Source of the DNA: a candidate division FCPU426 bacterium
GTDB taxonomy: Bacteria > Oederibacteriota > Muellerivitia > Muellerivitales > Muellerivitaceae
NCBI GenBank assembly: GCA_963796105.1
Contig: CAWCKJ010000003.1
Coordinates: 112,567 to 176,566, forward strand
DNA: 64,000 nucleotides
Direction: 5' to 3'
Positions 6,900 to 63,920 of the stretch are shown piece by piece. The position numbers and the translations under genes were made by a program. How positions within the stretch are numbered: the stretch's first letter is position 1; each line of letters starts with the position of its first letter. Below the pieces are notes generated by a model. It worked only from the letters and a program-made list of their open reading frames with translations, had not been told where the DNA came from and did not search any database.

Positions 6900-7057
6900 A
6901 TTGGACGCTTGTTAAAAGCCGGCCGGCGCGGGTAACCAGGATGCTTGGTTCGCGAGTGAAAGATCGTTTCGGAGGCTCGTTCTCCGCGCGTCGGCTTGGG
7001 CCGGATGGTTTGACGATGACGGTAGCAGAAATTCCCGCGAAAAGTACCCACCGTTCC

Positions 7058-13704: not shown

Positions 13705-14481
13705 ATGGACCGTGAGTTTCAAAAATCCATTTTTTACTCGGCCCTGTTCCACGCGCTTCTCTTCCTGATTTTTTTCCTGTTGTACCGTTCCTTCATCCTG
13801 GTGCGCACGCCCCTGCTGATGGACCTGACCCTGATCGGGGAAATGTCGCAAGGCCAGGGCATGGGATCGCCGGCGCCCCACGCGGGAGCGGAACCAGGCC
13901 AAATGCCGCCGGCCCAAACCGCCGGTGAATTCTCGACCCCCCGGAAGGAAGCGGCGAAACCCCCGGTCCCGAATCACGAAAAACCCGAAGCCGCGGTTAA
14001 AAAGCCCTCGAAACCCAAGCTTCATTCCGGGAACGCCAGCTCCGAATCCTACCTTGAAAGTTTGGAAAAGAAAGCCCCCATCGGGTTCAACATCAAAAAA
14101 GACGTCACTGGCGATATCAAGACCACCGCCGGTTTGGGCCAGGCAGGCGTGGCGGGGACTCCCGAAGGGAACCCCCAAATCGAGGGGGAACTGGCGGCCA
14201 GGAGCATCAAGCGCAGGGTGAATCCGGCCTACCCGGATTGGGCCAAAAAGCAGGGGATTGAGGCCACTGTGCGGTTCCATTTGACGGTGATGCCCAACGG
14301 TTTGTTGAAGGATGAACTGGATCTCGAGCAGACCTCGGGTTACCGCGAACTCGACCGAGTGGTGTACGAGGCCCTGATCCAATGGGAATTCGAGCCCCTG
14401 CCGCCGGAATTGCCCCAGGTGGACCAGTCCGGAATCATCACCTTCACATTCAGCCTCAATAACGCCTCCTCCTTCCCATGA
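13705..14481 (+). CDS. TonB/TolA-like energy transducer
   Basis: N-terminal TM anchor, a long Pro/Lys/Glu-rich spacer, and a C-terminal TonB-type domain (..RRVNPAYPDWAKKQGIEATVRFHLTVMPNG..). Confidence 0.7.
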   Translation: MDREFQKSIFYSALFHALLFLIFFLLYRSFILVRTPLLMDLTLIGEMSQGQGMGSPAPHAGAEPGQMPPAQTAGEFSTPRKEAAKPPVPNHEKPEAAVKKPSKPKLHSGNASSESYLESLEKKAPIGFNIKKDVTGDIKTTAGLGQAGVAGTPEGNPQIEGELAARSIKRRVNPAYPDWAKKQGIEATVRFHLTVMPNGLLKDELDLEQTSGYRELDRVVYEALIQWEFEPLPPELPQVDQSGIITFTFSLNNASSFP

Positions 14482-16583
14482 TTTATTTTTTGCTCGCGGG
14501 CGGGGCCCTTTTTTGGACCGGGTTGGCCCTGACCGCCTCGGCCCCGGGCATCGTTGGCGGGGACGCCCCGGAGTTGACCAGCGCGGCCTTCCATTTGGGC
14601 TCGGCCCACGCGCCAGGCTACCCCCTCTACGTGGCCCTGGTGAGGATCTTCCTTCAGATGCCTCTCGGGACCCCCGCTTTTCGATCCACCTTTTTTTCCA
14701 TCTTGGTCCAGGGCGCAGCTTTCGTCATTCTAGCCCATGCCCTCAAGAACCTGCCAGGAAGCCGGCTGAGGGAAGGAGAAAGATGGGGCCTGGCGTTCCT
14801 GATATCCTGCCTGGTCATGTCAGGCCCACTGGTTTTCCACCAGTTCCTAAGTCCCGAGGTGTTCGCTCTCCACTTTTTTTTCATCGCCCTATTCCTGCTC
14901 CTGGTTTTCAAAAAGGATTCACTCGGTTTTCTGGCCACCGCTTTTGTTTCGGGCGCGGCCCTCACCCACCAGCATTTGGCCCTGCTGGTTCTCCCGGCCT
15001 TATTGTGGAATTACCGCTCCTTCCTTGGAAGACCCAAGACCCTTCTTTACGGGATTTCGTTATTCCTGTTGGGACTATCGGTTTACCTTCTTCTCCCCCT
15101 GCGGGCTGTCCAGCATCCATTGGCAAATTGGGGGCATCCGGATAATTTCCGACAATTTCTCTACCATCTGGGAAGGACCCAATACGGCGGAGACATTACC
15201 GGCGGAAAATTCATGAACGGCCTCCAGCTTCTTTGGCTCTATCTCAAGGATTATTTCCGTGAAATATTGGGATTGGGACTGCCCCTGGTTCTACTAGGTC
15301 TCTGGATAGGTTACCGTAGATTTAGTGTTGCCTATTGGATCGGGTTCTCAACCCAATTCCTGTTGCTTCCTTTCCTGATCCGGGCCCCGAATGATCCTGA
15401 GAATAATTTCGTCAACGGGGCTTTCCTCACCCCCGCCATTCTTTGGTTTTCCCCGCTCCTGTTCCTGGGATTGGAATGGGCCTATGAAAAGGCGGGGAAG
15501 TTCCGTTTTTGGGCGACAGCCCTTGTGGCCTTGCAGGTCCTCATCGGCGCCGGCATCACCTTCGGCGAGAAGGATTCCTCCAGGAATCTCGCGGTGGAGG
15601 ACGTCGGGAGGGATATTTTCAGGCAGATGCCGAGACGGTCTGTTCTCTACAGCGAGGGCGACGCCGTGACCTTTTCCCTGGCTTATTTAAACCTGGTCTT
15701 GGGCCTCAGGCCCGACCTGGATCTTTTCGACCGGACGGGGGGGCTTTTCAAGGATCTGTACCAGCTTCTGGATTACCGGGGGAGTCCAAGCGTCACTTTG
15801 GATTACCTGGTCGGCAAGGAAAGGGCTTACGAGTCGATTCGGCAACCCGTGGACATCTATTACAGCGAATCCACCTATTCACCAGGCAGGGCCCTGACGA
15901 TGACCGGTTTGCTTTTCAAGGTCACGGAGGGGAATATGGGTTTGGGCCCGATGGACCTTTGGAACGGCTTCCGGCCTCCCCGGATAGAAAGGCGCCATGA
16001 TTATTTCTCGAGGGAAACAGGGGCAAGGTACTTTCTTTTCAAAGCATCCTGGGACCTGGACCAGGCCAAGAACCAGGCTTATTATCAGGCGGACATGGAC
16101 CGGCTCGGGGAACTGACCTTCGATAATTACAGGCTTCTCGTGAACGAGGGATTAGTCGAGAGCGGCCACGGTAGGACGGACCAGGCGGTGCTGGACTATG
16201 AGAAGGCCATCGAGATCACGCCGGATGCCTCCCTGGCCTGGGTTGACCTGGGCATTGTCGCACACAAACAGGGGCGCGTCGCGGATGCGGTGAGGTACTA
16301 CCGAAAAGCCGTGGCCCTGGAGCCCTATAACGCTGTCTACCACATCCACTTGGGTTACGAGTATTACCAAAACGGACAAGCCCAGGAGGCCATCGGGGAA
16401 TGGGAAACAACCAGGAGGATTGATCCCTCGAACCCCGAGGCCTATCACAACCTGGGCCTCATTTACATGAAGACCAATCCGGAATACGCCGCCCAGATGA
16501 TCCGGCAATTCCTGGGTATATATCCGGGTGCGGGGGACCGACCTGCACTTGAGAAATGGCTCGCGGCTCAGCCCGCCCAGTAG
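14478..16583 (+). CDS. DUF2723-like polytopic membrane protein (putative GT-C glycosyltransferase) with C-terminal TPR repeats
   Basis: N-terminal motif GGDAPELTSAAFHLGSAHAPGYPLY matches the DUF2723 signature. About 10 TM helices, then TPR repeats. Overlaps the tonB-like gene by 4 nt. Confidence 0.6.
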   Translation: MIYFLLAGGALFWTGLALTASAPGIVGGDAPELTSAAFHLGSAHAPGYPLYVALVRIFLQMPLGTPAFRSTFFSILVQGAAFVILAHALKNLPGSRLREGERWGLAFLISCLVMSGPLVFHQFLSPEVFALHFFFIALFLLLVFKKDSLGFLATAFVSGAALTHQHLALLVLPALLWNYRSFLGRPKTLLYGISLFLLGLSVYLLLPLRAVQHPLANWGHPDNFRQFLYHLGRTQYGGDITGGKFMNGLQLLWLYLKDYFREILGLGLPLVLLGLWIGYRRFSVAYWIGFSTQFLLLPFLIRAPNDPENNFVNGAFLTPAILWFSPLLFLGLEWAYEKAGKFRFWATALVALQVLIGAGITFGEKDSSRNLAVEDVGRDIFRQMPRRSVLYSEGDAVTFSLAYLNLVLGLRPDLDLFDRTGGLFKDLYQLLDYRGSPSVTLDYLVGKERAYESIRQPVDIYYSESTYSPGRALTMTGLLFKVTEGNMGLGPMDLWNGFRPPRIERRHDYFSRETGARYFLFKASWDLDQAKNQAYYQADMDRLGELTFDNYRLLVNEGLVESGHGRTDQAVLDYEKAIEITPDASLAWVDLGIVAHKQGRVADAVRYYRKAVALEPYNAVYHIHLGYEYYQNGQAQEAIGEWETTRRIDPSNPEAYHNLGLIYMKTNPEYAAQMIRQFLGIYPGAGDRPALEKWLAAQPAQ

Positions 16584-27454: not shown

Positions 27455-28885
27455 ATGGTGAAACGTCAAGATACGCCTCAGAAATCAAACCCGCAAGTCC
27501 AGAAAAAAGCCAATCGAAACGGGAGAATCGCGCCCAAGATTACGGCCAATACTCCCGTAGGTATTTGCGAAGACCGCCTAACAGCTTTTGGCGGATTGTT
27601 GGCATTGGCGAAGATGTTCGACCTTCTTGATTTTGAGCGGGAATTCAAAAAACACTATGCCGCACCTAAACGCCTTCCGAATTTGGGCCACTACCGGATG
27701 GTAAGCGGCATCCTAATGCTTCTTTTCATCGGGTTCCAAAGACTTGGCCATTTTGCCTACCTGCGGGGTGAGGTCATGCTGTGCGGTTTACTGCGGGTTC
27801 CCTTGTTGCCGGTAGTGACAACTTTTTGGAGATACCTGAGGTCGCTGGGGATCGGGCAGTCGGCATCGTTGCTGAATCTGAGTGGGGCGTTACGGGCCAA
27901 GGTTTGGGGACAGGTGAAATATGCCCCCAAGAAGGTGGAGATCAACATCGATACCACCACCGCAACGGTCTACGGAAATATCGAGGGAAGCCGAAAAGGA
28001 TACAACCCCAAGCACCGGGGCAAGAAGGGACTGAGGCCCATTCTGTGTTTTCTCCAGGAAACCCGGGAATATTTGTGCGGAACCCAAAGACGCGGAACCA
28101 CCCTTAGTTCTGAGGAAGTGGCCCGCCAAATTAGACAATTCCGGCGACTCTTGCCGTCCTGTGTCCGGACGATTCTGGTGCGCGGTGACGGTGAAATGAT
28201 CGGCTGGGAAAGCGTGAAAGCCTGTGAAAAAGAAGGGTTTTCTTTCATCTTCGGGAACAAGCGGCATGACCCGCCTTTCACGAAAAAGGGTTGGTACCGC
28301 CATGGAGAACACGAATACAACGAATGTGTCCATCAACCCATAGGCTGGCAACAACCAGTCCGGTTTGTGGCGATGAGGACGCTGGATGAAAAAGCGCGGG
28401 AGAAACAATTGAGCCTTCCTGAAATGGAAGGATATGTCTACCGAATCTTCGCGACCAACTGTCTGGGAGCACCCCATCGGGTGGTTGAGGAATACGACCT
28501 GCGCGCGGATGTGGAAAACCTGATTGGTGAGGCGCAACGGGAGGGGTTATTAGCAATTCCCTCTAAGAGTTTCCAAAGCCACCATGCTTTTTTCCAGATC
28601 GTGATGCTGGCTTACAACCTCTGGAGGTGGATGAAACTAATGGTGGGCCATTGTGGAAAAGAAAAGCGACCGGGAAAGAAGCCACAGGAGAAGGAACAGA
28701 TCACCATGCCGGACCATACCCTTCGGATCGCACGTTTGAAGATGCTCTTTGTAGCCGCCCGAATCCAGTATCACGGCCATCGGGATGTGGTGAGGTATTC
28801 AATCCATGATGATAGGACAGCGGGCCTATTGGGTTTCCTCAAATACCTTGATCGAAAACGATTGGAAAGACCCAGGGCGGCCTAG
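27455..28885 (+). CDS. IS1380-family DDE transposase
   Basis: 476 aa. Blocks ..FGGLLALAKMFDLLDF.., ..KGYNPKHRGKKGLRPILCFL.. and ..ENLIGEAQREGLL..SFQSHHAFFQIVMLAYNLWRWMK are collinear with ISEcp1/IS1380-type transposases as I recall them. Confidence 0.75.
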   Translation: MVKRQDTPQKSNPQVQKKANRNGRIAPKITANTPVGICEDRLTAFGGLLALAKMFDLLDFEREFKKHYAAPKRLPNLGHYRMVSGILMLLFIGFQRLGHFAYLRGEVMLCGLLRVPLLPVVTTFWRYLRSLGIGQSASLLNLSGALRAKVWGQVKYAPKKVEINIDTTTATVYGNIEGSRKGYNPKHRGKKGLRPILCFLQETREYLCGTQRRGTTLSSEEVARQIRQFRRLLPSCVRTILVRGDGEMIGWESVKACEKEGFSFIFGNKRHDPPFTKKGWYRHGEHEYNECVHQPIGWQQPVRFVAMRTLDEKAREKQLSLPEMEGYVYRIFATNCLGAPHRVVEEYDLRADVENLIGEAQREGLLAIPSKSFQSHHAFFQIVMLAYNLWRWMKLMVGHCGKEKRPGKKPQEKEQITMPDHTLRIARLKMLFVAARIQYHGHRDVVRYSIHDDRTAGLLGFLKYLDRKRLERPRAA

Positions 28886-43645: not shown

Positions 43646-44755
43646 ATGAAACACAATTCCTCCATGAATTCTGAAAAACAAAAAAATACAAGCAATAAAG
43701 GAACCGCGGAAAAAACGATCCTTCAACGGGAATTGGACATGTTCCACAGGATCATCGAGGGCATGAGGGAGGAGCTTTCCTACGTGGATCTCCTGAAACT
43801 CACAGTCACCTGCGTCTGCAAGGGATTGGGCTATGACCGGGCCGGAATTTTCTTGGTGGAACCAGGTGGGAAGAGTATCGCGAGGGCCATCGGAGTTGAC
43901 GCCAAAGGCCGGTTCGAGGTCGGGCATGACCATGTGGATCCTCTTTTAAATAAAAAGGGTTTCAGCACTTTTTCGGATTTGGTTTACGGCTATAAAAAGT
44001 ATTTCTATACCGCCAACCTGCTCAAGCTTTATCCCGATGCCAAGGGTGTCGAGAAAGGCGTGACCTGCAACGCGAATGTTCCGATTTCGATGGGAAAGAA
44101 ACGAATCATAGGTGTTCTGGCCGTGGATAACCTATTCACCCAACGTCAACTGACCCTCAAGGATATCGGCTCCCTCATGAATTTCGCGACCCAGGCGGGG
44201 ATGGCCATTGAGACTATCCGACTTCATGAGCAGGTTCGCGAGCTTTCGGTTACCGACGGTTTGACAAGGATTCACAATCGGAGGTATTTCGAGAGGTTCC
44301 TGGAAGATGAGGCCGCGAGAAGCAAGCGGTATAACCGCGCCTTCAGTCTTCTTTACCTGGATGTGGACCATTTCAAAAAAATCAACGACCATTACGGCCA
44401 TCCAGCCGGCGATGAAGTGCTAAAATTCATCGCATTATTTTTGCGCGCTGACCTTCGAACCATTGATGTGGTAGCCAGATTAGGAGGGGACGAATTCGGC
44501 ATCATTCTTCCCGAAATACATCCGGAGGGGGCCATGACGGTAGCCCAGCGGCTTCATCGGAAGATTGCAGAAGTCCACCTGCCAGTGGAAGCGATGGTGA
44601 AAGACCGGAAAAAGATCACACTCAGTATTGGATTAGCCACTTTTCCGGAGAATGCCTCTAGCGCCGAGGAATTGGTCAAGATGGCGGATAAGAGCCTCTA
44701 CAAAGCCAAGACCTCCGGCCGAAATCGTGTTGGACCTTTTATTAGGAAATCCTGA
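43646..44755 (+). CDS. GAF-domain diguanylate cyclase (GGDEF)
   Basis: N-terminal GAF-like sensor. C-terminal GGDEF domain with RYNRAFSLLYLDVDHFKKINDHYGH..GD and the active-site GGDEF (LGGDEFGIIL). Confidence 0.85.
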   Translation: MKHNSSMNSEKQKNTSNKGTAEKTILQRELDMFHRIIEGMREELSYVDLLKLTVTCVCKGLGYDRAGIFLVEPGGKSIARAIGVDAKGRFEVGHDHVDPLLNKKGFSTFSDLVYGYKKYFYTANLLKLYPDAKGVEKGVTCNANVPISMGKKRIIGVLAVDNLFTQRQLTLKDIGSLMNFATQAGMAIETIRLHEQVRELSVTDGLTRIHNRRYFERFLEDEAARSKRYNRAFSLLYLDVDHFKKINDHYGHPAGDEVLKFIALFLRADLRTIDVVARLGGDEFGIILPEIHPEGAMTVAQRLHRKIAEVHLPVEAMVKDRKKITLSIGLATFPENASSAEELVKMADKSLYKAKTSGRNRVGPFIRKS

Positions 44756-52688: not shown

Positions 52689-55049
52689 GTGCCAAGTATC
52701 GAGGAAGTCGCGGCGGAGGAAGAATTACGCCTGAGGGAGGAATCCCTCGAAAGACGGCGGAAATTTTCCATTTTCGCAGGAACGTTTTTATTGTTCGGCG
52801 GCTGGTTCTACTTCGCAAAAGGCTGGATGAACAGGGGAAGTTTTTTAATCCTAATTTCCTACCTTTTCTTGCTTCATGCGATGGGGCTAAAAAAATATTT
52901 CGAGAAATGGTCCCGTGGAAATTTGCTGTCCGCCGCTCCGGTTGCGGCTGGCCTGCTCGCACTCTATGAAACAACCCATATCTCACGTTTTTATTGGGGG
53001 AAAGACCCATCCTTTTGGCTCGCCGTCCACGCTGGCGCCGTGGGCGATCCCTTTTGGTCCCCTTTGCCGGTCCTTTTCGGCCAAGCCCTTTGTTTCCTGT
53101 TTCCGACCCGGACATTCACGCTTCTTCCCGTCGCGTCCGCCTTAGTTCTTTCTCTCGCCTCGATCATGGCCCTTGGGGAGTTATTCTGGCAATTGAAATC
53201 GCAAAGCATGATCAACAAGGTGATCGCAAGCCTCCTTTGCATGGCCGTCGGATTCAGCCGCCCATGGTGGGACGCGGGAACAATCGGATCTGGGATGGTC
53301 GCGTCCCTGGGGCTTGTTCTTTTCCTGACCCAAAGGAATCTTCTCAACACGGAGGAAAAACCATGGGACTGCCTTTGGATGATCCTGGGGTTACTTTTCA
53401 GCGTGCATCCCCTTTGGGGCTTGTTGGGTCTTTTCAACCACCTGATCCAGGTGGACCTTCAGGCGAAGGACTTTAAAGTCTCTTGGAGCCCCTTGGCCCT
53501 GGGACTCACTCCCTACCTTTGGGTGTATTTCCGCGCCGGAACCTTTTTCCCGTCCTGGGGCGGAAATCACCCGTTTTATTATTTCGTTAAGGAATGGCGG
53601 AGTCTTTGGGATTGGCACCGAGGCACGGATTGGGATCCCCTGAACGCGGCCGCGAGTTTCGGTGTAACCCTGGGCGTCTTATTCCTTTTTTTGGTCATTT
53701 TATGGATTTTAAACCTCCTGAAATGGAAAGTTGGCAACCCCAAAATGATCAGAGCCTCAGAGGTATGGATGTGTATTTTCGCCGCCATTTTGTCCTGGAT
53801 TTCCTCATCCTCCTCCTCGGCGCAAGCGGGGCCCACCGCCGTTTGGCTGCCAATGGGATTGGGATGCCTCCTGCTTTCATTCATCGAAAAAGGGATGGAG
53901 AGGAAACAAACGTCTTTTCTTTCCGGGACCCGCTTAGCCGCCGCGAGCGCTCTGATCCTGCTTTTATCCATCGGCCTAGCCTTTCTTCCCGGCCAGTATT
54001 TTTTTCGGTCGCAAATGACTTTTGCCGAGCAGCACGCGCTGAATCTCCTGAGGGCTTTGAATGAGAAATCCATCCTTGTTTTCCAGGATCCCTTTGAGGC
54101 GGCGGCCTGCCGGGAGACGCGCCTCATGGATCCTCTACAGACCAAGGCCGTTTTTTTGGATGAACGATACTTGGACCGGCGTTGGTACATGGCCCAATGC
54201 ATTAAAAGCCATCCGGAAGTGATTTTCTCCTCCATTCAAGGTTCCCCTGAGGAGGTCGTGAAAAACCTGGCGGAAAATAACCTTCCGGAATGGGACATCC
54301 AATGGTCCCGTTCCAGGATGCCGGATGGTTGGAAGGGCCCGGGAACTTTCCCCACAGTATTAACCCAGGAGTTCACCGGAACGGATCTTGGCACCCAACC
54401 CCCCGGGAATATCCAATTTCGCTATGACCTGACCTCGCTTCCGGACCTGGAAAACAGGTTTTCCGATCCCGCTAACCGGTACATTAGAAGATACTCGGAG
54501 GGTTTCAATGAGCTGGGCTTGGCAATGATGGTTTTGGGGCAGTACTCAGCCGCCATACGTTCCTTTGAAAGGTCGGCCCATTTGAACCCGGGCGACCCGG
54601 AACCCCGGAAATCCCTTTTCGGAATATTCGCCCAGCAAAACATCATGGAGGCTGCCCGCCTGGATTTCGAGAAAACCATCAAGGAGCATCCGGCCCGGAT
54701 CGAGGGTTTGATGCGCCAATTGGAACAAACGAAGAACAACCAGGATGAGGTTCAAACTGTCCTCTTGCTCGATCAAATGATCAAGCTGAACCAGGAACTA
54801 TCCGACGCGCAATTCCATTTGGCGATGATCTATGAAAAACAAGGCAACATATCCGAGTCGAAATCTCTCTTGGAATCCTCCGTGAAATTAAACCCACAAC
54901 GATTGGATGCCCAGTTGACTCTTGGACATTTAATGGCCAAGTTGGGGAACCGCATCAAGGCAGAGGAGGCTTTTAGGTCCGTTCTCGGCTTGGATCCACA
55001 GAATAAAGAGGCCCAAAAGGAACTTTGGAAACTCTTGAACCAACCGTAA
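52689..55049 (+). CDS. DUF2723-like polytopic membrane protein with C-terminal TPR repeats (paralog of 14478..16583)
   Basis: Multi-TM N-terminal half with ..LAVHAGAVGDPFWSPLP.., analogous to the DUF2723 HxxGYPLY region. C-terminal TPR repeats. The start is uncertain. Confidence 0.5.
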   Translation: MPSIEEVAAEEELRLREESLERRRKFSIFAGTFLLFGGWFYFAKGWMNRGSFLILISYLFLLHAMGLKKYFEKWSRGNLLSAAPVAAGLLALYETTHISRFYWGKDPSFWLAVHAGAVGDPFWSPLPVLFGQALCFLFPTRTFTLLPVASALVLSLASIMALGELFWQLKSQSMINKVIASLLCMAVGFSRPWWDAGTIGSGMVASLGLVLFLTQRNLLNTEEKPWDCLWMILGLLFSVHPLWGLLGLFNHLIQVDLQAKDFKVSWSPLALGLTPYLWVYFRAGTFFPSWGGNHPFYYFVKEWRSLWDWHRGTDWDPLNAAASFGVTLGVLFLFLVILWILNLLKWKVGNPKMIRASEVWMCIFAAILSWISSSSSSAQAGPTAVWLPMGLGCLLLSFIEKGMERKQTSFLSGTRLAAASALILLLSIGLAFLPGQYFFRSQMTFAEQHALNLLRALNEKSILVFQDPFEAAACRETRLMDPLQTKAVFLDERYLDRRWYMAQCIKSHPEVIFSSIQGSPEEVVKNLAENNLPEWDIQWSRSRMPDGWKGPGTFPTVLTQEFTGTDLGTQPPGNIQFRYDLTSLPDLENRFSDPANRYIRRYSEGFNELGLAMMVLGQYSAAIRSFERSAHLNPGDPEPRKSLFGIFAQQNIMEAARLDFEKTIKEHPARIEGLMRQLEQTKNNQDEVQTVLLLDQMIKLNQELSDAQFHLAMIYEKQGNISESKSLLESSVKLNPQRLDAQLTLGHLMAKLGNRIKAEEAFRSVLGLDPQNKEAQKELWKLLNQP

Positions 55050-55245
55050 CGCAAATTGAGTCCAAAGAACGCCCGAACAATGTACTTTTCCCCCCGCTTG
55101 AGTTGAACAGCCGCCTCGGCTGGTCATTGCCTTTTTCATGGATTTTTTACCGGGCCGGAAAAACGTTAAAATATTGGGCTTTTCCAATATGAGTATTGCT
55201 ATAATAGTTTCACTTAACGCTTGGTTGTTTTAAACGGGAGCTGGA

Positions 55246-57549
55246 ATGGATCTGCAAGAAATCCTTAATTCCATGGTGAATAAAAAGGCTTCAGACGTCC
55301 ATTTGAAGGCGGGCGCCCCCCCTCTTTTCCGCATTGACGGCGATTTAATCCCCCAAAGTGAAACCATTCTTTCCGCGCAGGAATTGGCGGAAGTCGCGTC
55401 TTATTTGATGGATGAGAAGCAGCAAAAACTGTTTTTCGAGGACCACCACGAGGTCGACCTGGCTTACGCCGTGGAGGGTTTGGCCCGTTTCAGGACGAAC
55501 GCCATGTGGCAGAGGGGTCTTCCGGAAATCATCATGCGGGTTATTCCCCAGATCGTCCCGCGGATTGAGGACATCAACATGCCGACCTCGGTGTTGAAGC
55601 AAATCGCCATGGAACCCCGAGGGTTGGTCCTGGTCACGGGAATAACGGGTTCAGGGAAATCAACCACCCTCGCGGCCCTCATCCACGAGATCAACGTGAA
55701 CCGCTCCGCCCATATCGTGACCGTTGAAGATCCCATCGAGTTTGTCCACCAGGACGCCAAATCCAGCATGACTCAAAGGGAGGTGGGACTAGACACTGAA
55801 AACTTTAAAACGGCCTTGAAATTCGTGTTGCGGCAGGACCCCGATGTCATACTTATCGGGGAAATGCGCGACGTGGAGACGGTCCAGGCCGCCATTACGG
55901 CCGCAGAAACCGGCCATTTGGTGTTTTCCACCCTGCATACTATGGATACCATTCAAACGATAGAGAGAATTTTGGACTTTTTCCCGCCCGATCAGCAAAA
56001 CCAAATGAGGATCCAGTTATCCAATACCTTGCGAGCCGTTATCTCTCAACGCTTGGTTTCTAAGGCCGACGGCGCCGGTGTCGTTCCAGCCTGTGAAATC
56101 ATGGTCGTGACACCCACCATCAAATCCCTTATCGCCGATGATAAAATCAGCTCGATTCGCGGTTATATCGCGGAGGGTCATAGCCAATATGGAATGCAGA
56201 CTTTCGACCAATCCTTGATCGAACTGGTTCGAAAGGGCTTCATTACCCGGGAAAGCGCCATGGAACAGGCCACGTCCCCCAGCGAAATTGATCTTGGGTT
56301 GAAGGGGATTTCATCCTCCAAGGCCTCCGCCCAGTCCTTGATTTCACAAATGGAGACTTCTCAACAAAAAGAGCGGGTTTCCGGCTGGCTAAAGCGGGCG
56401 CAGGATCTTTATGAAAGAAGGCGCAATGACGAGGCAAAAGCGGAGCTAAAACGCATTCTGCAGGAAATGCCGGAACATAAGGAGGCGAACGCGCTGATGG
56501 CCCGTTTGCGTGAAATGGAGGACAAAACCGACAAGAAAAAAGACGCCTCATCCTCGGTTAAAACCGCTCTTCAATTGTACCGGGAAGGCAAGTTCCAGGC
56601 CGCTATCCTGGAATTTCAAAAAGCCTTGGAAATAGACCCGGGAAACAAGCAGGCCGAAGCTTATATCCGCTCCATTCAAACCGAAATGGACAACCGCGTT
56701 CGCGCGAGGGAGTTTGTCCAGGCTGGGATGCAGAAACAACAGCAAAATGACATGGTGTCCGCCCTGAGCCAATTGGAACAAGCGCTCATTTTGGATCCTG
56801 ATAATGAGCAGGCGCAGGTGCTGCAAAAGGACATTAAAAACACTCTTCAAAAGGACCAAGCCAGGGAAAAAGCCAAGGAACAAAACCAAATCGCCATTGA
56901 TTTATACAAGGCGGGTGATTTACTGGGCGCTCTAGTCGCATGGAATAAGGCCTATGAGCTGAATTCCGAGCTGGAAGAAGTCTCGCGCTATTTGCAGCAG
57001 GGGATCGCCAAACTTCTGTCCTTCGGGGTGGAAGGGCTTGAGGGAAATCCGGAAACCCAGAACATCCTAGCGCTCTTTGAGCAGGGAGTTCGGAGTTACG
57101 TGCGAAGCGATTTCCAGACCGCGATTGAGTTTTTTAAAAAAGCCCTCGCCAAGGCCGACGGCAACGCCTATTTAAACGCCTACCTGCAAAAGTCCCTGCA
57201 GATGGAGGAACAGCAAGTCGAAGAATTGTTCCATGAGGGTTTAAAGGCCCAGGAGTCGGGCGACTTGGCCGCGGCGCTAAAAGAGTACAATAAGATCTTG
57301 AGGCTCTCGCCGGGGCACCCGGAAACCGTGAAACAACTCGGCGTCTTAAAAGCGACGATTCAGCAGAAAACCGAGGCTTTGTACACCGAGGGTAAAGTTT
57401 ATTTCGACCAGAATGACATGGATAAGGCCGTTCGTATTTGGGAAAAAATACTTTACCTCGATCCTTCCAATGAACGCGCTAAAAAGAAAATTGAAGAAGC
57501 AAAAATCAAAAAAAGCACCTTATCCGGTATCTTTTCAAAGATAAACTAG
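55246..57549 (+). CDS. pilT: type IV pilus retraction ATPase PilT fused to a C-terminal TPR-repeat domain
   Basis: Residues 1 to about 350 form a complete PilT: Walker A GITGSGKSTTLAAL, Asp box, Walker B DVILIGEMRD, His box TLHT, and PilT-specific AIRNLIRE-like region. These are followed by about 400 aa of TPR repeats. Confidence 0.8.
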   Translation: MDLQEILNSMVNKKASDVHLKAGAPPLFRIDGDLIPQSETILSAQELAEVASYLMDEKQQKLFFEDHHEVDLAYAVEGLARFRTNAMWQRGLPEIIMRVIPQIVPRIEDINMPTSVLKQIAMEPRGLVLVTGITGSGKSTTLAALIHEINVNRSAHIVTVEDPIEFVHQDAKSSMTQREVGLDTENFKTALKFVLRQDPDVILIGEMRDVETVQAAITAAETGHLVFSTLHTMDTIQTIERILDFFPPDQQNQMRIQLSNTLRAVISQRLVSKADGAGVVPACEIMVVTPTIKSLIADDKISSIRGYIAEGHSQYGMQTFDQSLIELVRKGFITRESAMEQATSPSEIDLGLKGISSSKASAQSLISQMETSQQKERVSGWLKRAQDLYERRRNDEAKAELKRILQEMPEHKEANALMARLREMEDKTDKKKDASSSVKTALQLYREGKFQAAILEFQKALEIDPGNKQAEAYIRSIQTEMDNRVRAREFVQAGMQKQQQNDMVSALSQLEQALILDPDNEQAQVLQKDIKNTLQKDQAREKAKEQNQIAIDLYKAGDLLGALVAWNKAYELNSELEEVSRYLQQGIAKLLSFGVEGLEGNPETQNILALFEQGVRSYVRSDFQTAIEFFKKALAKADGNAYLNAYLQKSLQMEEQQVEELFHEGLKAQESGDLAAALKEYNKILRLSPGHPETVKQLGVLKATIQQKTEALYTEGKVYFDQNDMDKAVRIWEKILYLDPSNERAKKKIEEAKIKKSTLSGIFSKIN

Positions 57550-57659: not shown

Positions 57660-58058
57660 ATGAAAAAATTGATCATAGGCATCTTGATATTAATCGGCTT
57701 CTTTTTTATGGCCCTTAATACATCCATGCTCGCTGACCAGGCGTTGAAATGGGTGCAGGAAAATCCCAAGGATCCGCATGCTCCTAAAGTCCTATATGAA
57801 GCTGCCCGTTGGTGCGACATCATGGGCGACAATAAAAAAGCTTTGGAGGTTTATTGGGATCTTTACCAACAATATCCCGGCAGTTCCTCCCTCTGCGCCG
57901 CGTCTCTCTATTACAGCGCTCAAATCCAGGTGGATACGAGTGTTTCGAAAAAACTCGCGGATCCTTTTTTGAAGATTATATTAGACCAGTATTTTAGCGA
58001 GACTGAGTGGGTGGAAAAAGCCAGAAAGTTACAGGACGAGGTGAATTATGTTCGCTGA
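57660..58058 (+). CDS. small secreted protein with a single TPR-like repeat
   Basis: Signal peptide MKKLIIGILILIGFFFMALN. Helical TPR-like core. Confidence 0.4.
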   Translation: MKKLIIGILILIGFFFMALNTSMLADQALKWVQENPKDPHAPKVLYEAARWCDIMGDNKKALEVYWDLYQQYPGSSSLCAASLYYSAQIQVDTSVSKKLADPFLKIILDQYFSETEWVEKARKLQDEVNYVR

Positions 58059-59022
58059 AAAGAATAAATATATTGGTTTGGCCGGTTTGGTCTGCCTGAT
58101 AAGCATGGGTTTGGCTTCATCAGGGATTTGTAAAACCACCGAGGGGGAGGATGAAAATGACCACCTATCCCCGCCCCCTACCCCTATATCCGCTGATCGA
58201 TACCGAAAAATGAATCAGGCGGATCAAGAAAAATCCGTTAAAACGCTGAAAACCGCCAAGAAGGAAAAATCGGAAGTTTCATCCGCAACCTCCCCCGCCG
58301 CCCAGGTAAGGGCGGGGGATAATATAAGCGTCTATTATTTCACGAAAGCTGGTTTTGTAATAACACAGCCATCCCAATTACCTTCATTGGGTAAAGTGGT
58401 TGGGGACCTTAGCGAGACGAACGCCTCCGGCCCGGGCGTTTTAAGTTACAGCCAAGCGAAAAAACCTTATATTGAATATTCCTCCAAGGCTGAGTTAAAT
58501 ATAGACGATTTACTGGTTGTTTATTCGATTTCTCCGGAAAATATTAATGAACCCGAATCGAATTTTTCCGGTTTTCTGGTTGAAAACAGGGCTATCGTAA
58601 AGGTGATTTCTGTCCAAAAGAAGTATTGCCAAGTGGAGATCGTTAAATCCTTCGTTGCTTTTCACGCGGGAGACCGTGTCCGGCCATACAGCGATGAGCT
58701 TCAAAGATGGACAAAGGCTCAAACTAAAAAACCACTTCCCTCAAATGAAATCCATTGTTATGTATGCGGTGGAGAGGTTCAAAAAACAGCTTATTCCCAG
58801 TCGGATTTCATCATCTTGACCGCCGGCACGAACAAGGGTGTGGTTGAGGGACAAGTATTTCATCTAAAACAATTAGTTAAGAACGTGGAATTGAGGGAGG
58901 ATCTTCATGCCTTCCGGGGTTCGGCGCGCGTATTTTTCGCGGGATCCAATTACTCCATGGCCCAAATTCTTTCCAGCAACGAATCCATCCAAAAAGGGTT
59001 TGAGGCGGTTTACAATCCCTGA
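58048..59022 (+). CDS. hypothetical exported protein
   Basis: N-terminal hydrophobic segment IGLAGLVCLISMGLASSG. No family assignable. Confidence 0.4.
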   Translation: MFAEKNKYIGLAGLVCLISMGLASSGICKTTEGEDENDHLSPPPTPISADRYRKMNQADQEKSVKTLKTAKKEKSEVSSATSPAAQVRAGDNISVYYFTKAGFVITQPSQLPSLGKVVGDLSETNASGPGVLSYSQAKKPYIEYSSKAELNIDDLLVVYSISPENINEPESNFSGFLVENRAIVKVISVQKKYCQVEIVKSFVAFHAGDRVRPYSDELQRWTKAQTKKPLPSNEIHCYVCGGEVQKTAYSQSDFIILTAGTNKGVVEGQVFHLKQLVKNVELREDLHAFRGSARVFFAGSNYSMAQILSSNESIQKGFEAVYNP

Positions 59023-59045: not shown

Positions 59046-59903
59046 ATGGATTCCTTGAAAAACAAAACAGTTGAAGAAGACCCCTTTTTTTTAAAGATTC
59101 TTGAACATGTATTGGCCGAAAAAGGATTCGACGGCACGCATTACAAAATCAATTATATCAAGAGAAGGGTGGCAGTCCGAATGCGGGCATCCGGAACCCG
59201 CGATTACTTGGAATATTATCAGGCGTTAAAAAAAAACCGGGATGAAGTATCACTGCTGTTTGACCGTTTTACCATTCATGTGACGGATTTTTTCAGGGAT
59301 GCCGAAGTTTACAATTCCATGAAGTTAAAAGTACTTCCTGAAATTTTTCGGCAACCGGGATCCAGCCTTAAGATTTGGTGCGCCGGATGCAGCACGGGGC
59401 AAGAGCCTTATTCCATCGCCATCACTTTGAGGGAAAACAGCCCCAAGTACGCGGAGAAGAATATTAAAATCATCGCCACCGATATTGACGATGCCAGCAT
59501 TCGTTTTGCCGAGCGGGGGACCTATCCCATTGCTTCACTGAAAAAACTCTCGAGCCAACAAATGAGCAAGTGGTTTTTGAACGAGGGGGAAAAAGCGCGC
59601 ATATCCCAGGAATTGAGGGACTCGGTAAGGTTCAAAACGCATGATTTACTTGGACGTTGGGATTCGGATTTTTCGGATTTTAACCTTATATTATGTAGGA
59701 ATCTCCTTATTTACCTTTCGGCGGTCCGCCAGCAAAAACTTTATCAAGGGTTTCACAAAGCATTGCGTCCGGATGGGTATTTGATTCTTGGTTTGACGGA
59801 AACATTAATGGGCGGGGCTCGTGAATTATTCCGCTGCGTTGACGTGAAGAACCGAATCTACAAAGTTTGCGGTTCAAAAACGCCTTCTGACAGAGGGGCT
59901 TGA
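59046..59903 (+). CDS. cheR: CheR-type protein-glutamate O-methyltransferase
   Basis: Collinear with E. coli CheR: N-terminal helical domain; ..FFRD...F..L..... followed by IWCAGCSTGQEPYSIAI (AdoMet motif I); ..ATDID...L..A..G.Y; ..D.I.CRN.LIY.. Confidence 0.85.
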   Translation: MDSLKNKTVEEDPFFLKILEHVLAEKGFDGTHYKINYIKRRVAVRMRASGTRDYLEYYQALKKNRDEVSLLFDRFTIHVTDFFRDAEVYNSMKLKVLPEIFRQPGSSLKIWCAGCSTGQEPYSIAITLRENSPKYAEKNIKIIATDIDDASIRFAERGTYPIASLKKLSSQQMSKWFLNEGEKARISQELRDSVRFKTHDLLGRWDSDFSDFNLILCRNLLIYLSAVRQQKLYQGFHKALRPDGYLILGLTETLMGGARELFRCVDVKNRIYKVCGSKTPSDRGA

Positions 59904-59909
59904 GGGAAA

Positions 59910-61091
59910 ATGGATAAGGCACAGGATCATATTAATCTCGGAACCGCTTTCACTCTTTCTAAACGGTATGACGACGCGATTGTGGAGTTTAAAAAAGCGC
60001 TGGTCTTGAGCCCATCGGATGGTGAAATCCTTTTTCAATTGGGGGGATTATGCACCAATATCGGGAATTACGAGGAAGCTGAGAATTATTACCACGACGC
60101 GCTATCCATCAACCCGATGAATTTAAACGCGCATTGCAAATTGGGTTTGTTATTGGAAGTCCAGGGCAAGTACCAGGAATCCATACAAGAATTTCAAAAA
60201 GCCACTGAATTGAATCCGACTGACGCGGGCCTTTACAACAACCTGGGAAATGTCTATTCGAAAATGGGCAGGTATCAGGAAGCCATTGATCAGTTTAAAA
60301 AATACACTGGCATCAATCCGAGCAACGCGGAAATTTTCTTCAAAATGGGTTTTTCATTTGAACAGTTGGGCAGGCTTGATGAGGCCATCAACTCCTATGA
60401 ACGAGCTCTAGTCCTAAATCCCCGACACGCGGCTGTTTACTCCATCCTGGGAAACGCTTACGCGAAAAAAGGGGATTATCAGGAGGCCATATCGCTTTAT
60501 CAACAGGCCCTTCGATTAAATCCTCAAGAGCCGGAAGTCCATTTAAAATTGGGGGTGGCCTTCATGTCGCTCGGCCAATACGACAAGGCCTTGTCTGTTT
60601 TGGAGGAGGCGCGTCAAAAAAACCCGCAGAATGCCGAGGTTTATTTGAAGTTTGGGATGATTTACGCGGGCCGCGGCCAGCATGAGGAGGCCATTCAAAT
60701 GTACCGAAAGGTCATGGAGATTAATCCCCATGACGCAAGCGTCCATAATGTCTTGGGTTACATTTATGACCGGCAGGGAGACGCGGAAAAAGCCATGGAG
60801 GAATACCGCGCCGCCAAACTCATCAACCCCAATGACATATTAATCTTGGATAATCTCGGGAACTTGAATTATAAACAAGGCCATTTTGATGAGGCGGCCC
60901 AGGATTTCGAGAGCTTGCTTCAATTGAATCCGCTGCATAGTGATGCCCACGCGAAGCTGGGAAATGTTTATTTAAAGAAAGGCGAAAAGAACAAGGCCGT
61001 CACCCACTGGGAAAAAGCCTTGGAACTTGATCCGTCCAATGAGATCCTCAAGAACAATTTAAGAATTGTCAAAGGAAGTCCCACGGCATGA
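59910..61091 (+). CDS. TPR-repeat protein (about 11 repeats)
   Basis: Regular 34-aa repeats with the W-LG-Y / A-F-A-P signature across the whole 393 aa. Confidence 0.8.
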   Translation: MDKAQDHINLGTAFTLSKRYDDAIVEFKKALVLSPSDGEILFQLGGLCTNIGNYEEAENYYHDALSINPMNLNAHCKLGLLLEVQGKYQESIQEFQKATELNPTDAGLYNNLGNVYSKMGRYQEAIDQFKKYTGINPSNAEIFFKMGFSFEQLGRLDEAINSYERALVLNPRHAAVYSILGNAYAKKGDYQEAISLYQQALRLNPQEPEVHLKLGVAFMSLGQYDKALSVLEEARQKNPQNAEVYLKFGMIYAGRGQHEEAIQMYRKVMEINPHDASVHNVLGYIYDRQGDAEKAMEEYRAAKLINPNDILILDNLGNLNYKQGHFDEAAQDFESLLQLNPLHSDAHAKLGNVYLKKGEKNKAVTHWEKALELDPSNEILKNNLRIVKGSPTA

Positions 61092-61726
61092 TGAAGACCC
61101 AGGAAAAATCCCTCGGTGAATTATTGCGTCAGGCTGGGAAAATCACCTCCCGCCAAATTCAAGTGGCGTTATCGGAACAAAAAATAACCCATGAACCCAT
61201 TGGGAAAATTCTTGTTTCACTTGGTTTTGTGGAGGAGAGGGATATTTTGCAGGTCATGGAAGGCATGGTGGTATTGACGTTCCGCATGGATAAAGAGCTG
61301 TTCGGGGTGGAAACTTTCCGCGCGCGAGAGGTCTTGAAATACACTGTATTAAAACCATTTGAAAATAAAGTTGGAAATTGGGAAGGGCATCTTGCCCTTC
61401 GCGGTGAGGAAATCCCAGTTTTGTCATTCAGGAAATTCCTTGAGGTTCCCGCGACGGGTCCCGTGGAACGGAGCTGGTTCATTATCCTTGAGAAAAAGGG
61501 GAGGCCTTTCGCCCTTTGGGTGGACGAGGTCAGGGAAGTAACCCGCTTTAAAATCGATCAAATCGAGCCGGTTCCGCTTTATCTTTTGGGAAAAAAAACA
61601 GAATTGTATTATTGTTTAGGTAAAATAAAAGATGACCTTTACTCGATCATCAATCCGGATAATTTAGTGGAAGATGTTCCCGAAAAGCCGCCGTTAATTG
61701 GAAAAAACCATGCCAGCTCAACCTGA
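61088..61726 (+). CDS. CheW-like coupling protein with N-terminal MshEN/T2SSE_N-type putative c-di-GMP-binding motif
   Basis: The N-terminal 60 aa carry tandem motifs LGELLRQAGKITSRQIQVALSEQ and IGKILVSLGFVEERDILQVM, matching the MshEN consensus RLGxxLxxxGxIxxxxLxxALxxQ. The rest is a CheW-like domain (VLTFRMDKELFGVETFRAREVL..). Confidence 0.6.
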   Translation: MMKTQEKSLGELLRQAGKITSRQIQVALSEQKITHEPIGKILVSLGFVEERDILQVMEGMVVLTFRMDKELFGVETFRAREVLKYTVLKPFENKVGNWEGHLALRGEEIPVLSFRKFLEVPATGPVERSWFIILEKKGRPFALWVDEVREVTRFKIDQIEPVPLYLLGKKTELYYCLGKIKDDLYSIINPDNLVEDVPEKPPLIGKNHASST

Positions 61727-63920
61727 AACAAAAACCATCCGTGAATTAGCCCACGGAAGCGATCAAGGCGACGCGTCCACCCACAATAATTTGGGGGTTT
61801 TTTATTATTCCAAGGGCATGTACGCGGAAGCTATCAAGGAATTTAAAACTGCGCTTGAGATCGATCCCGAGAACACCCAAGCATTGGAGAATCTGAAGGC
61901 CGTCAACCGGCACACGGGCCTTTACGACCGTTCGATTGAAGCCTACAAAAAATCGACCCAAATGTTTCCATCGGATTCCGAGGCTAGTTATAACCTCGCC
62001 AATTCCTACCGGTATACGGGTCAATATGAAAAAGCAATCGTTGAATACCAGAAAACCATCGCCTTAAATCCAGAACATCCTTTCGCTAGAAACTACCTTG
62101 GTATCACTTACAAGTGCACGGGCCAGTTGGAGGAGGCCATTAAGGAATTCAAGAAAGCCATCGATGACAACCCCTATTACGCTGATCTTCATAACAATTT
62201 AGGCGAGGTTTATTACAAAAAAGCCATGTTGAATGAGGCTCTCGTTGAGTTTAAAAAGGCCATTTCTCTTAACCCTGACTATGCCATCGCGCACTACAAC
62301 TTGAGCTTCGTTTATGGCGATAAGAACATGCTGGAAGAGGCCGAGAGGGAGTTCAAGAAAGCGGTGGATTTGAACCCTAATTTCGGGCAGGGAGCGCAGG
62401 CGCTTTTGTCGATTGAGCGCGCGAAAAGCATGGAGGAGAAAGTCGCCGAGAAAATCGCTTCCGCCCCCCCCGCTCCCTCCGTGGAAACATACCTTAGTTT
62501 AGCGTCCGCTTACAGCGGGAAAGGACTCCTGGATGAGGCCATCAGGGAATATAAAAGAGCCATTGAGGCCATGCCGAATGAGGAAAAATCCTACCGGGCT
62601 TTGGGTGAAATCTACCTACAGAAGGGCCTGATCGAGGACGCGTTAATGTCGTTCCAGAAGGCTATCGATATTTCACCCACCGACATCGAGAACTATATAC
62701 AGCGGGGGATAGCCCTTCGGGAATTGAACCGTTGCGACGAATCGGTGAGCGAGTTTAAAAAAGCCATAGAATTAACGCAGAATTCCAGCAAGGCTCATTT
62801 TGAGATGGGAGTCACCTACTTCAAAATGGGTGAAACTGAAAATGCCACGAGGGAAATTAGAAAAGCCCTGGAAATAGACCCTGAGAACGCTGAGGCGCAT
62901 TATTATCTTGGCGTTTACTATTACAAAGTCAATCTTTACGACGAGGCCATCCGGGAGATCACCCAGGCCGTGGAGTTGGACGTCTCCATCGCCTCAAGCG
63001 CTGAGGCCCTTATTTATTTGGGATTGGCCCTGGCTGACAAAGGCCGTTTTGAGGAAGCCATCGCAGAGTATAAGAAGGCGATGGAATTGGACCCTAAAAA
63101 CCCGATTATCCATAATAGTTTGGGAGTGGCCTATAAAAACGCCGGAATGATCGATGATGCCATCCAGCATTATCAGAAGGCCATTTCCATCAACCCTCAA
63201 TACGCCAAGGCCTATAATAATTTGGGAGTTGTTTATTTTAAAATGAGCCAATATGAGAAAGCGATCGAAACATTCAAAAAAGCTGTCGAAATAGAGCCGG
63301 AATATAAAACGGCTCAAAATAACCTTTCAGTGGCCATGAAAAAGCGGATCGTTCTTTCCGAGGCATCGGAGGTTTTGATTAAGCAAATTATGGCTGACCC
63401 GGAAAATTATGCCTTGCATCAAAACCTCGGCATGCTTTACAAAAATACGGGGCAACACTCGGAAGCCGTACGCGAGTTCCAGGAAACCATACGCTTGAAT
63501 CCGAAAAACCGGGAAGCTTTAACCCAACTCGGCGACACTCATCTCCTGCTGGGGCATTTGGATGAAGCTGTCAAGGTGCTGGCTAAGGCAATTTCCTGCG
63601 ACCCTACCCATCCGGACGCGCATATGCAATTGGGCAAGGTTTATATCCAACGCCAATGGTGGGATGAGGCTTTGGTTGAGTTCAAAAAGAGCCTGGAAGG
63701 AAATAAGAATTCCCCGGAGGTATATTATTATCTCGGCCAAGTCTACCGGTTCAAAGGCTGGTGGGACGACGCCATCCAAAAAATGCAAATGTACCTGGAT
63801 TCAGCCAATACCGAGGAGGACAAGGTCATACAGGCCATCGATATCATCCAGCAAATCCAAGTTTGGCGAAAAGAACTCCAAGTTTCCCCGAGCGGGGACA
63901 AGGCGAAATATATAAAATAG
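61698..63920 (+). CDS. large TPR-repeat protein (about 20 repeats)
   Basis: 740 aa of back-to-back TPR repeats. Overlaps the upstream gene. Confidence 0.8.
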   Translation: MEKTMPAQPETKTIRELAHGSDQGDASTHNNLGVFYYSKGMYAEAIKEFKTALEIDPENTQALENLKAVNRHTGLYDRSIEAYKKSTQMFPSDSEASYNLANSYRYTGQYEKAIVEYQKTIALNPEHPFARNYLGITYKCTGQLEEAIKEFKKAIDDNPYYADLHNNLGEVYYKKAMLNEALVEFKKAISLNPDYAIAHYNLSFVYGDKNMLEEAEREFKKAVDLNPNFGQGAQALLSIERAKSMEEKVAEKIASAPPAPSVETYLSLASAYSGKGLLDEAIREYKRAIEAMPNEEKSYRALGEIYLQKGLIEDALMSFQKAIDISPTDIENYIQRGIALRELNRCDESVSEFKKAIELTQNSSKAHFEMGVTYFKMGETENATREIRKALEIDPENAEAHYYLGVYYYKVNLYDEAIREITQAVELDVSIASSAEALIYLGLALADKGRFEEAIAEYKKAMELDPKNPIIHNSLGVAYKNAGMIDDAIQHYQKAISINPQYAKAYNNLGVVYFKMSQYEKAIETFKKAVEIEPEYKTAQNNLSVAMKKRIVLSEASEVLIKQIMADPENYALHQNLGMLYKNTGQHSEAVREFQETIRLNPKNREALTQLGDTHLLLGHLDEAVKVLAKAISCDPTHPDAHMQLGKVYIQRQWWDEALVEFKKSLEGNKNSPEVYYYLGQVYRFKGWWDDAIQKMQMYLDSANTEEDKVIQAIDIIQQIQVWRKELQVSPSGDKAKYIK

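Follow-up and report, generated by a model that had tools for sequence, protein, structure and literature searches.

A PilT-family ATPase joined to a spaced tetratricopeptide-repeat arm in a conserved chemosensory gene cluster of candidate division FCPU426

The gene described here, pilT-TPR, lies on contig CAWCKJ010000003.1 of a candidate division FCPU426 bacterium (assembly GCA_963796105.1), in a stretch of 64,000 nucleotides (positions 112,567 to 176,566, forward strand) that is referred to throughout as the window. The phylum consists of uncultured soil and peat bacteria. The gene encodes a PilT-family ATPase core, a short serine-rich linker and a long arm related to tetratricopeptide repeats (TPR), and it is followed on the same strand by genes for chemosensory (che) proteins. 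The PilT family and TPR domains are already known; what appears to be new, as judged from the predicted protein, is a PilT joined to an arm of spaced TPR units.

Reading frame and ATPase core of PilT-TPR

pilT-TPR is one open reading frame (ORF) with an ATG start, GGGAG just 5' of it and zero in-frame stops, as seen in the ORF listing and on reading of the DNA. A reading of the sequence made earlier without database searches (the sequence-only reading) had proposed that a complete PilT core continues without a stop into a C-terminal extension. The single 767-aa ORF bears this out, and the fusion is conserved. Near 56.28 kb the DNA contains no long homopolymer; a C5 run is present at the junction.

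Profile searches of the kind proposed in that reading (PF00437 and TPR) placed Pfam T2SSE at aa 3-275 (1e-49) and TPR families, above their gathering scores, at aa ~400-750. The NCBIfam model TIGR01420 (PilT/PilU) was matched end to end (aa 3-347 against positions 2-343 of 343; 457.8 bits, cutoff 319.1). Walker A, Walker B, Asp and His boxes are all intact (Table 1), so that the earlier assignment of the core to the PilT family with every catalytic box holds. Because the catalytic residues are invariant in 57 of 57 aligned family members, the protein is predicted to be an active enzyme. The PilT-typical AIRNLIRE helix takes the form TIKSLIAD here. It shares I292, L295 and I296 with AIRNLIRE and has K293 for R and D298 for E, both conservative changes. 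The consensus of the family at this position is (T/V)I(K/R)(S/A)(L/M)I(A/L)(E/D), and Thermus thermophilus PilT likewise departs from AIRNLIRE.

In a sequence search of the PDB, the highest scores went to proven retraction motors, namely T. thermophilus PilT2 (5FL3, 365 bits), Geobacter metallireducens PilT4 (6OJX, 345), Aquifex aeolicus PilT (310) and Pseudomonas aeruginosa PilT (308), with lower scores for PilU (292), DotB (129) and PilB/GspE (~100). PilB and GspE models and structures covered the ATPase core only (~100-137 bits). A full-length AlphaFold monomer model was built from the 57-sequence family alignment, with a mean predicted local distance difference test score (pLDDT) of 83.4. 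Compared by Foldseek, it superimposed on PilT4 (6ojx_A) with a target-normalised template modelling (TM) score of 0.91, a root mean square deviation of 2.6 A over 354 columns and 47% identity. The corresponding values were TM 0.91 and 46% for P. aeruginosa PilT (3jvu_A), and TM 0.88 and 41% for PilU. The core begins at residue 1, with no PilB/GspE-type N-terminal domains, and C283 is the single Cys in the protein, so there is no PilB-type Cys4 zinc motif. The alternative of a generic PilB/GspE-like ATPase, entertained in the sequence-only reading, is ruled out by the bit scores (308-365 for PilT against ~100 for PilB/GspE) and by the TM score of 0.91.

Over the core, the full-length matches to PilT4 (6OJX), T. 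thermophilus PilT2 (5FL3) and P. aeruginosa PilT (3JVU) lie at 46-49% identity and TM 0.86-0.91. Known PilTs have 344-390 aa and end ~10-20 residues past the SPxE helix, whereas PilT-TPR continues into a 400-aa arm. P. aeruginosa PilU (9N32), a PilT-dependent accessory retraction ATPase of the same TIGR01420 family, has a C-terminus somewhat longer than that of PilT; its alignment with PilT-TPR (292 bits, 41% identity) reaches aa 367, and it has no TPR domain. At 767 aa the protein exceeds the size of a single-module PilT (~345-400 aa), with aa 348-767 outside the family model. By the sequence and fold criteria tested, it is a member of the PilT family that departs from it in size and architecture. 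These comparisons show that pilT-TPR encodes what is predicted to be a catalytically intact PilT-family ATPase of the hexameric type.

Table 1. Features of pilT-TPR and of the genes that follow it, in window coordinates
Feature	Position	Strand	Basis or remark
Possible extended -10 element TGcTATAAT	55197..55205	+	hand-read in the 196-bp spacer upstream of pilT-TPR
pilT-TPR ORF	55246..57549	+	767 aa; coordinates include the stop codon
PilT-family ATPase core, aa 1-347 (N-terminal PAS-like and RecA-like C-terminal domain)	55246..56286	+	TIGR01420, PDB, Foldseek
Walker A, G132ITGSGKST140	55639..55665	+	G132, G135, G137, K138, T140 invariant in 57 sequences
Asp box, V160EDPIE165	55723..55740	+	E161, D162, P163, E165 invariant in 57 sequences
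Walker B with catalytic Glu, D198PDVILIGEMRD209	55837..55872	+	read from sequence; D198, P199, D200, G205, E206, M207, R208, D209 invariant in 57 sequences
His box, T222GHLVFSTLHT232	55909..55941	+	T222, G223, H224, H231, T232 invariant in 57 sequences
AIRNLIRE-helix variant, T291IKSLIAD298	56116..56139	+	I296 invariant
Fusion-specific linker, S344 to S364 (SPSEIDLGLKGISSSKASAQS)	56275..56337	+	near-invariant in all fusion clades
TPR-like arm, aa 370-767, seven units of ~53-58 aa	56353..57546	+	Pfam, repeat analysis, AlphaFold
132-aa protein, N-terminal membrane anchor, weakly CpoB/YbgF-like helical domain	57660..58058	+	profile against 6g5s CpoB, E 6.9e-5
TsaP-like protein, 324 aa, signal peptide, no LysM	58048..59022	+	family profile of 23 orthologues
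CheR methyltransferase, no TPR domain of its own	59046..59903	+	PF01739 (1.5e-52), PF03705
Stand-alone canonical TPR protein, 393 aa, ~11 TPRs	59910..61091	+	starts 6 bp past cheR
MshEN-CheW, 212 aa (MshEN aa 9-58, CheW aa 62-196)	61088..61726	+	NF053729, PF01584 (2.1e-21)
Stand-alone canonical TPR protein, 740 aa	61698..63920	+	window ends 80 bp after

Spread of the fusion, its linker and its arm

Long unexpected fusions sometimes prove to be artefacts of assembly or sequencing: an ordinary pilT could have been run together with a TPR gene 3' of it by a frameshift or by loss of a stop codon, and the junction does contain a C5 run. The spread of the fusion speaks against this. In a word-indexed search of 5.8 billion proteins, the product was found in ~47 clusters at 65-91% identity, nearly all of them exactly 767 aa, and a second group of full-length products (765-770 aa, 98-100% coverage) was found at 41-44% identity. 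A linker-pattern scan of one genome per GTDB species gave 31 loci, all from different species. At 24 of these the arms are 57-88% identical to that of the window, and the records are titled candidate division FCPU426 or carry generic labels (uncultured or unclassified bacterium, proteobacterium); one other locus belongs to the second group, and five, most of them titled Candidatus Goldbacteria, have arms 25-27% identical. The products from the protein search come from NCBI, ENA, JGI and Logan assemblies. Across 57 aligned homologues from independent assemblies the junction peptide is nearly invariant, and a frameshift artefact is excluded because of this. The conservation of the peptide in dozens of independent assemblies disposes of the sequencing error that the sequence-only reading had allowed for. 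An artefactual origin is given practically no credence and is taken, on these comparisons, as refuted; it is the sole rival explanation to be excluded in this way.

The survey of databases showed that more than 80 independent assemblies encode PilT-TPR, at 739-771 aa. By clustering, these fall into at least 5 clades, namely lineage A (that of the window), clade 1, the Goldbacteria type and two orphan clades, one with P0057 and one with P0081 and P0161. Identity between clades amounts to 54-63% in the core and only 20-28% in the arm, yet the arm retains its length and repeat plan. Rho encoded beside the clade-1 genes has 83%-identical relatives labelled FCPU426, and clade 1 is for this reason probably a second deep branch of the candidate division. 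Comparison of the predicted proteins among clades shows that in FCPU426 and Goldbacteria the fusion is an old architecture maintained by purifying selection.

In an exhaustive arm-only HMMER search of 1.84 billion cluster representatives, the arm was PilT-fused in four 50%-identity clusters of the top 150, and the remaining top-150 matches were TPR-only proteins. Public annotation of PilT-TPR proteins reads only "PilT/PilU family type 4a pilus ATPase" or "twitching motility protein PilT". Exact look-up of the PilT-TPR and of the 740-aa TPR protein of the window returned no record. A metagenome scan anchored on CheD returned generic CheD loci at 42-56% identity, the fusion being in none of them. 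In the literature, no description was found of a natural PilT-TPR protein or of its gene cluster.

The linker (aa 344-364) is near-invariant in all clades including Goldbacteria, while the arms diverge. Its motif is present in 85 fusion proteins and fragments, all of those examined except P0060; the tandem PilT-PilT proteins, which have the core in common with them, all lack it. Within and after the linker, at aa 357-369, the pLDDT of the full-length model falls below 50. The Ser-rich linker is probably a hinge, a docking site or a modification site.

The tandem PilT-PilT proteins (714-755 aa) made up ~35 of the top 120 matches in the search of 5.8 billion proteins. Two complete cores were present in eight of eight checked (P0059, P0065, P0066, P0072, P0082, P0096, P0114 and P0116), and each core had its own Walker A and GEMRD or GELRD in all four whose motifs were read. 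Organism labels, where present, are Polyangiales, Polyangiaceae and Armatimonadetes. These proteins are a different and apparently common elaboration of the retraction motor.

The arm gave strong matches to Pfam TPR families (TPR_2 94.7 bits, cutoff 27; TPR_19 73.9, cutoff 25; TPR_1 58.5, cutoff 27.8; TPR_14 48.7, cutoff 23.5). Self-comparison of the sequence placed unit starts near aa 370, 426, 479, 535, 597, 650 and 701, and the family-averaged autocorrelation has peaks at shifts of 56 and 109, 3-4 standard deviations over background. Each unit is made up of a TPR A/B hairpin, closed by the (L)DPxN turn customary in TPRs, and a connector helix that leads straight on into helix A of the unit after it. 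The arm is all-helical, with pLDDT 85-95, in both AlphaFold models, the full-length one and one made for aa 336-767 alone. Helices of 29-35 residues alternate with helices of 14 residues; the latter are seven B helices, each with an A helix before it, forming antiparallel hairpins. Foldseek assigned the arm to TPR with probability 1.0, yet the TM scores against solved contiguous TPR superhelices were 0.10-0.20. The arm is predicted not to be made of contiguous 34-aa repeats in a regular superhelix; its predicted shape is not a standard solenoid, and its long-range geometry is uncertain. About 12 TPRs had been proposed at first, an estimate from length. The TPR type of the extension stands; the count does not, and is replaced by seven spaced hairpins with a period of ~55 aa.

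Apart from TPR families, the Pfam scan of the other top arm matches gave no functional hint from other fusion partners. The 55-aa spaced-TPR unit was also matched in 11-21 separate stretches of the giant proteins P0150, P0151, P0154 and P0167 (2,000-2,500 aa), and builds very long stand-alone proteins as well. The conserved C-terminal tail L-x-x-I-F/L-x-x-I was considered as a membrane-targeting amphipathic helix; the idea was rejected, since in alignment the tail corresponds to the connector or capping helix of the repeat units before it.

Genes and gene order around pilT-TPR

In both FCPU426 lineages pilT-TPR is the first gene of a conserved same-strand cluster. The order of the encoded proteins is PilT-TPR, a small membrane-anchored protein, a TsaP homologue, CheR, a TPR protein, MshEN-CheW, a second TPR protein (missing from one clade-1 locus), P-II, CheY, CheC, CheD, CheW, CheY, CheB, CheA and CheX. 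From pilT-TPR through the gene of the 740-aa TPR protein, the gaps and overlaps in the window are +110, -11, +23, +6, -4 and -29 bp, and the spacing is operon-like. Genes past the window end were read from the locus of a 91%-identical relative, in which the cluster continues with P-II, CheY, CheC, CheD, CheW, CheY, CheB, CheA, CheC/X and a GGDEF protein. The CheA of this relative consists, in order, of Hpt, P2, dimerisation, HATPase and CheW domains and lacks a receiver; no CheA of the ChpA type, in which several Hpt domains are combined with a receiver at the C-terminus, was found in its cluster.

Lineage A and clade 1 differ at ~44% identity and have the same che cluster downstream, with different genes upstream: nadC, birA, coaX and glycosyltransferase-like genes in lineage A, and rho, rpmE, prfA and prmC in clade 1. 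The clade-1 series has a methyl-accepting chemotaxis protein inserted and CheB and CheA last. The downstream order is kept in nearly all FCPU426 loci. Unlike known PilTs, PilT-TPR is encoded with che genes and not beside pilU, pilB or pilC. As for the trait of the Tfp class, che genes occurring with type IV pilus genes, pilT-TPR and the tsaP-like gene stand at the front of the cluster in two lineages. By Pfam, the TPR, CheR and CheW-like neighbours named in the sequence-only reading are real genes. That reading had missed the TsaP homologue, the MshEN domain on the CheW-like protein, and the CheA, CheB, CheY, CheC, CheD and CheX set past the window end.

The TsaP-like protein had no match in Pfam or NCBIfam, and its single-sequence PDB match was marginal (E 0.36). 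The family profile of 23 orthologues (A4) matched TsaP of Myxococcus xanthus (3jc8_Ta; E 1.1e-21, 80.7 bits, profile 19-282 against TsaP 17-347) and of P. aeruginosa (6ve2_O; E 2.9e-6). The homology spans the FlgT-like region of TsaP; where TsaP has its LysM stretch the alignment has a gap, and Pfam gave no LysM match. All orthologues have a signal-peptide-like hydrophobic N-terminal segment. The neighbours of the fusion gene in Goldbacteria showed no similarity to this profile. To our knowledge, TsaP is known only as a pilus-secretin partner. The adjacent homologue implies that a secretin exists and ties the cluster to a pilus secretin. The 132-aa protein, conserved directly 3' of pilT-TPR in lineage A, reached 26 bits with TIGR02795, under the cutoff. 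It has no detectable similarity to the 157-aa clade-1 protein in the same slot, and the two are equivalent by position only.

The 393-aa TPR protein is 60-91% identical among the loci of lineage A (70-91% in all but three). The SgmX model gave 70 bits with the 740-aa TPR protein against a cutoff of 1800, and no orthology is indicated. MshEN-CheW matched the MshE-type c-di-GMP-binding model NF053729 with 57.7 bits (cutoff 38), and its clade-1 orthologues (L117 16095-16757 and L033 16126-16779) with 65.7 and 51.9 bits. It is a predicted CheW adaptor that binds c-di-GMP; no paper on such an adaptor was found in the literature. In MshE and other MshEN-domain ATPases, pilus motors are under the control of c-di-GMP; the c-di-GMP module of MshE is carried by the extension ATPase, whereas here it is on the CheW adaptor and the motor bears TPRs instead. 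The cluster thus joins a predicted pilus motor, a secretin accessory, a c-di-GMP receptor domain and a full chemosensory pathway.

TPRs inside che clusters are also known from the CheR-TPR fusions WspC and FrzF, which belong to chemosensory pathways whose outputs are alternative or related to pili, and a cheR with a TPR gene 6 bp on resembles a split CheR-TPR (PMC3447774). Unlike WspC and FrzF, the TPRs here are on a motor ATPase and on separate proteins and not on CheR; the CheYs are single-domain and the CheA is classical, unlike the multidomain regulators typical of WspC and FrzF pathways.

A P-II family protein (PF00543; ~97 bits with GlnB/GlnK models) is encoded inside the che cluster of both lineages, where its gene follows those for the TPR or CheW proteins and precedes the first cheY (L115 7881-8219, L033 18343-18672, L117 16754-17086). 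It is an unusual component for a chemosensory operon. Genes for c-di-GMP turnover were seen nearby: a GGDEF gene in the window (43646-44755, +), a GGDEF gene at the cluster end in the closest relative (L115 15048-16142), and an HD-GYP-like gene with two GAF-GGDEF genes upstream in clade 1 (L033 and L117, 2237-6335). Their presence is in line with c-di-GMP input through MshEN-CheW.

Upstream of pilT-TPR, the possible extended -10 element of Table 1 is a consensus match only, in a phylum whose promoters are uncharacterised. A consensus scan gave no two-hexamer promoter at this element, and promoter and terminator matches did not exceed the shuffled expectation. In the window only the 196-bp spacer (55050-55245) separates pilT-TPR from the 786-aa membrane-TPR gene before it. 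Other FCPU426 genomes (L012 6740-8908, L032 2801-9664) have one to three large PMT_2/TMEM260-like, glycosyltransferase-like membrane genes with TPR tails between the two. Besides the fusion, six large TPR proteins, an unusual density, are encoded in the 64 kb (877-2994, 6896-10066, 14478-16583, 52689-55049, 59910-61091 and 61698-63920). That at 14478-16583 joins a TMEM260-like O-mannosyltransferase-type membrane domain to TPRs, and in that at 52689-55049 the N-terminal region is hydrophobic and unannotated. Over most of positions 1-22000 the GC content is 0.54-0.60 (0.50 in the first 2 kb), and over 22000-64000 it is 0.45-0.54; a DDE transposase gene lies at 27455-28885 (+). The shift in GC could be due to gene content, to an island or to an assembly join.

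Possible roles of the arm

The PilT class of ATPases powers the retraction of type IVa pili through the PilC platform. PilT and PilB engage PilC only intermittently (PMC6858323), and recruitment is on this account a natural control point. On the strength of the synteny, it is considered moderately probable that PilT-TPR is a retraction ATPase, or a dedicated paralogue, whose arm links the motor with the chemosensory and c-di-GMP module encoded alongside it. The protein would act on the PilC platform and, if it assembles like other PilTs, each hexamer would carry six arms as built-in adaptors that tether or gate the motor. Candidate partners of the arm would be the TPR proteins, MshEN-CheW, phosphorylated CheY (CheY~P) and CheR. 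The linker would pass arm occupancy on to the ATPase ring, and chemosensory and c-di-GMP input would set when and where retraction happens.

A narrower proposal, which we hold tentatively and regard as rather unlikely, is that the arm is a docking site for the chemosensory array and at the same time its output, making PilT-TPR a retraction ATPase with its own switch complex. The ligand of the arm or of the linker would be CheY~P, MshEN-CheW loaded with c-di-GMP, or the partner TPR proteins, and its binding would directly allow the hexamer to engage the PilC platform or prevent it from doing so.

Several observations, taken up here and in the next paragraph, weigh against a coupling of the motor to the che module. 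In the 57-sequence alignment the conserved positions of the arm are mostly structural TPR ones, and no obvious conserved binding patch was seen; the placement of the arm relative to the core in the model is not confident (predicted TM score 0.43). The Goldbacteria-type genes lie between that of a large Ig-domain protein and mraZ, rsmH, ftsI and murE, with no che genes adjoining. That the fusion persists there without adjoining che genes would fit a retraction ATPase whose arm has nothing to do with chemosensory signalling and serves localisation (to a pole or to the machine), self-association, or autoinhibition through its own linker; the place of the gene beside the che cluster would then mean no more than co-regulation or an inherited gene order. 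Conservation is higher in the linker than in the arm, as would suit an intramolecular peptide-in-groove interaction, and in a genome unusually rich in TPRs such fusions may be a lineage habit. However, the downstream order is the same across ~44% identity although the upstream contexts are different, and the TPR genes and the TsaP homologue are interleaved and overlapping with che genes, a pattern typical of products that interact physically. An arm unrelated to the che genes is accordingly given a low, if appreciable, probability. Recruitment of the neighbouring TPR, CheR and CheW-like proteins by the arm, as proposed in the sequence-only reading, is favoured by the conserved gene order in two lineages and disfavoured by the Goldbacteria copies, which are not beside che; the case for it is circumstantial.

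PilT paralogues with non-canonical roles exist in other bacteria. PilT-TPR might likewise have a job outside the pilus, either remodelling or positioning the chemosensory array or powering another envelope machine, with the TPR arm as an adaptor for a substrate or partner. No pilB, pilC, pilMNOPQ or pilin genes were found in the 64-kb window or in the 20-kb loci, and the AIRNLIRE helix is divergent. The che set, with a classical P1-P5 CheA and with CheC, CheD and CheX, resembles the flagellar type rather than Pil-Chp, and because of this the pathway may chiefly control something else. Such a role is nonetheless improbable, as the core resembles proven retraction motors (47-49% identity, TM 0.91) more closely than it does PilU, DotB or PilB, and a TsaP homologue is conserved near pilT-TPR.

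If the arm does couple a retraction motor to the che module, its counterparts are to be sought among the separate adaptors that link signalling to pilus motors (PMC7519303, PMC11580455, 10.1101/2021.06.11.447907), namely M. xanthus SgmX (a TPR protein, acting with MglA on PilB), P. aeruginosa PilG/PilH, FimX, PilZ and the Synechocystis PATAN-REC regulators. These address the same problem, which ATPase engages and where, by means of TPR scaffolds and chemosensory response regulators. They are separate polypeptides, mostly targeting the extension motor PilB, whereas the adaptor-like domain of PilT-TPR belongs to the same polypeptide as the predicted retraction motor.

The signalling control of type IV pilus motors is still being worked out system by system, and the adaptors of the studied systems (PilG/PilH, FimX, SgmX with MglA) are separate and often bind weakly. 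PilT-TPR occurs only in uncultured bacteria and its function is read from gene context, which limits its value as a model. Within this limit it offers a compact and testable case of coupling between motor and signalling, with the candidate partners listed in the operon, an arm that is cleanly deletable and an invariant linker that is an obvious mutational target. The arm also documents an unusual TPR geometry, with spaced hairpins joined by long helices. Should the arm prove to be the docking site and output of the chemosensory array, it would be a covalently hard-wired link from sensor to motor, not known in any studied pilus system. For FCPU426 and Goldbacteria, known only from metagenomes, PilT-TPR and its cluster provide a first functional handle on motility and behaviour.

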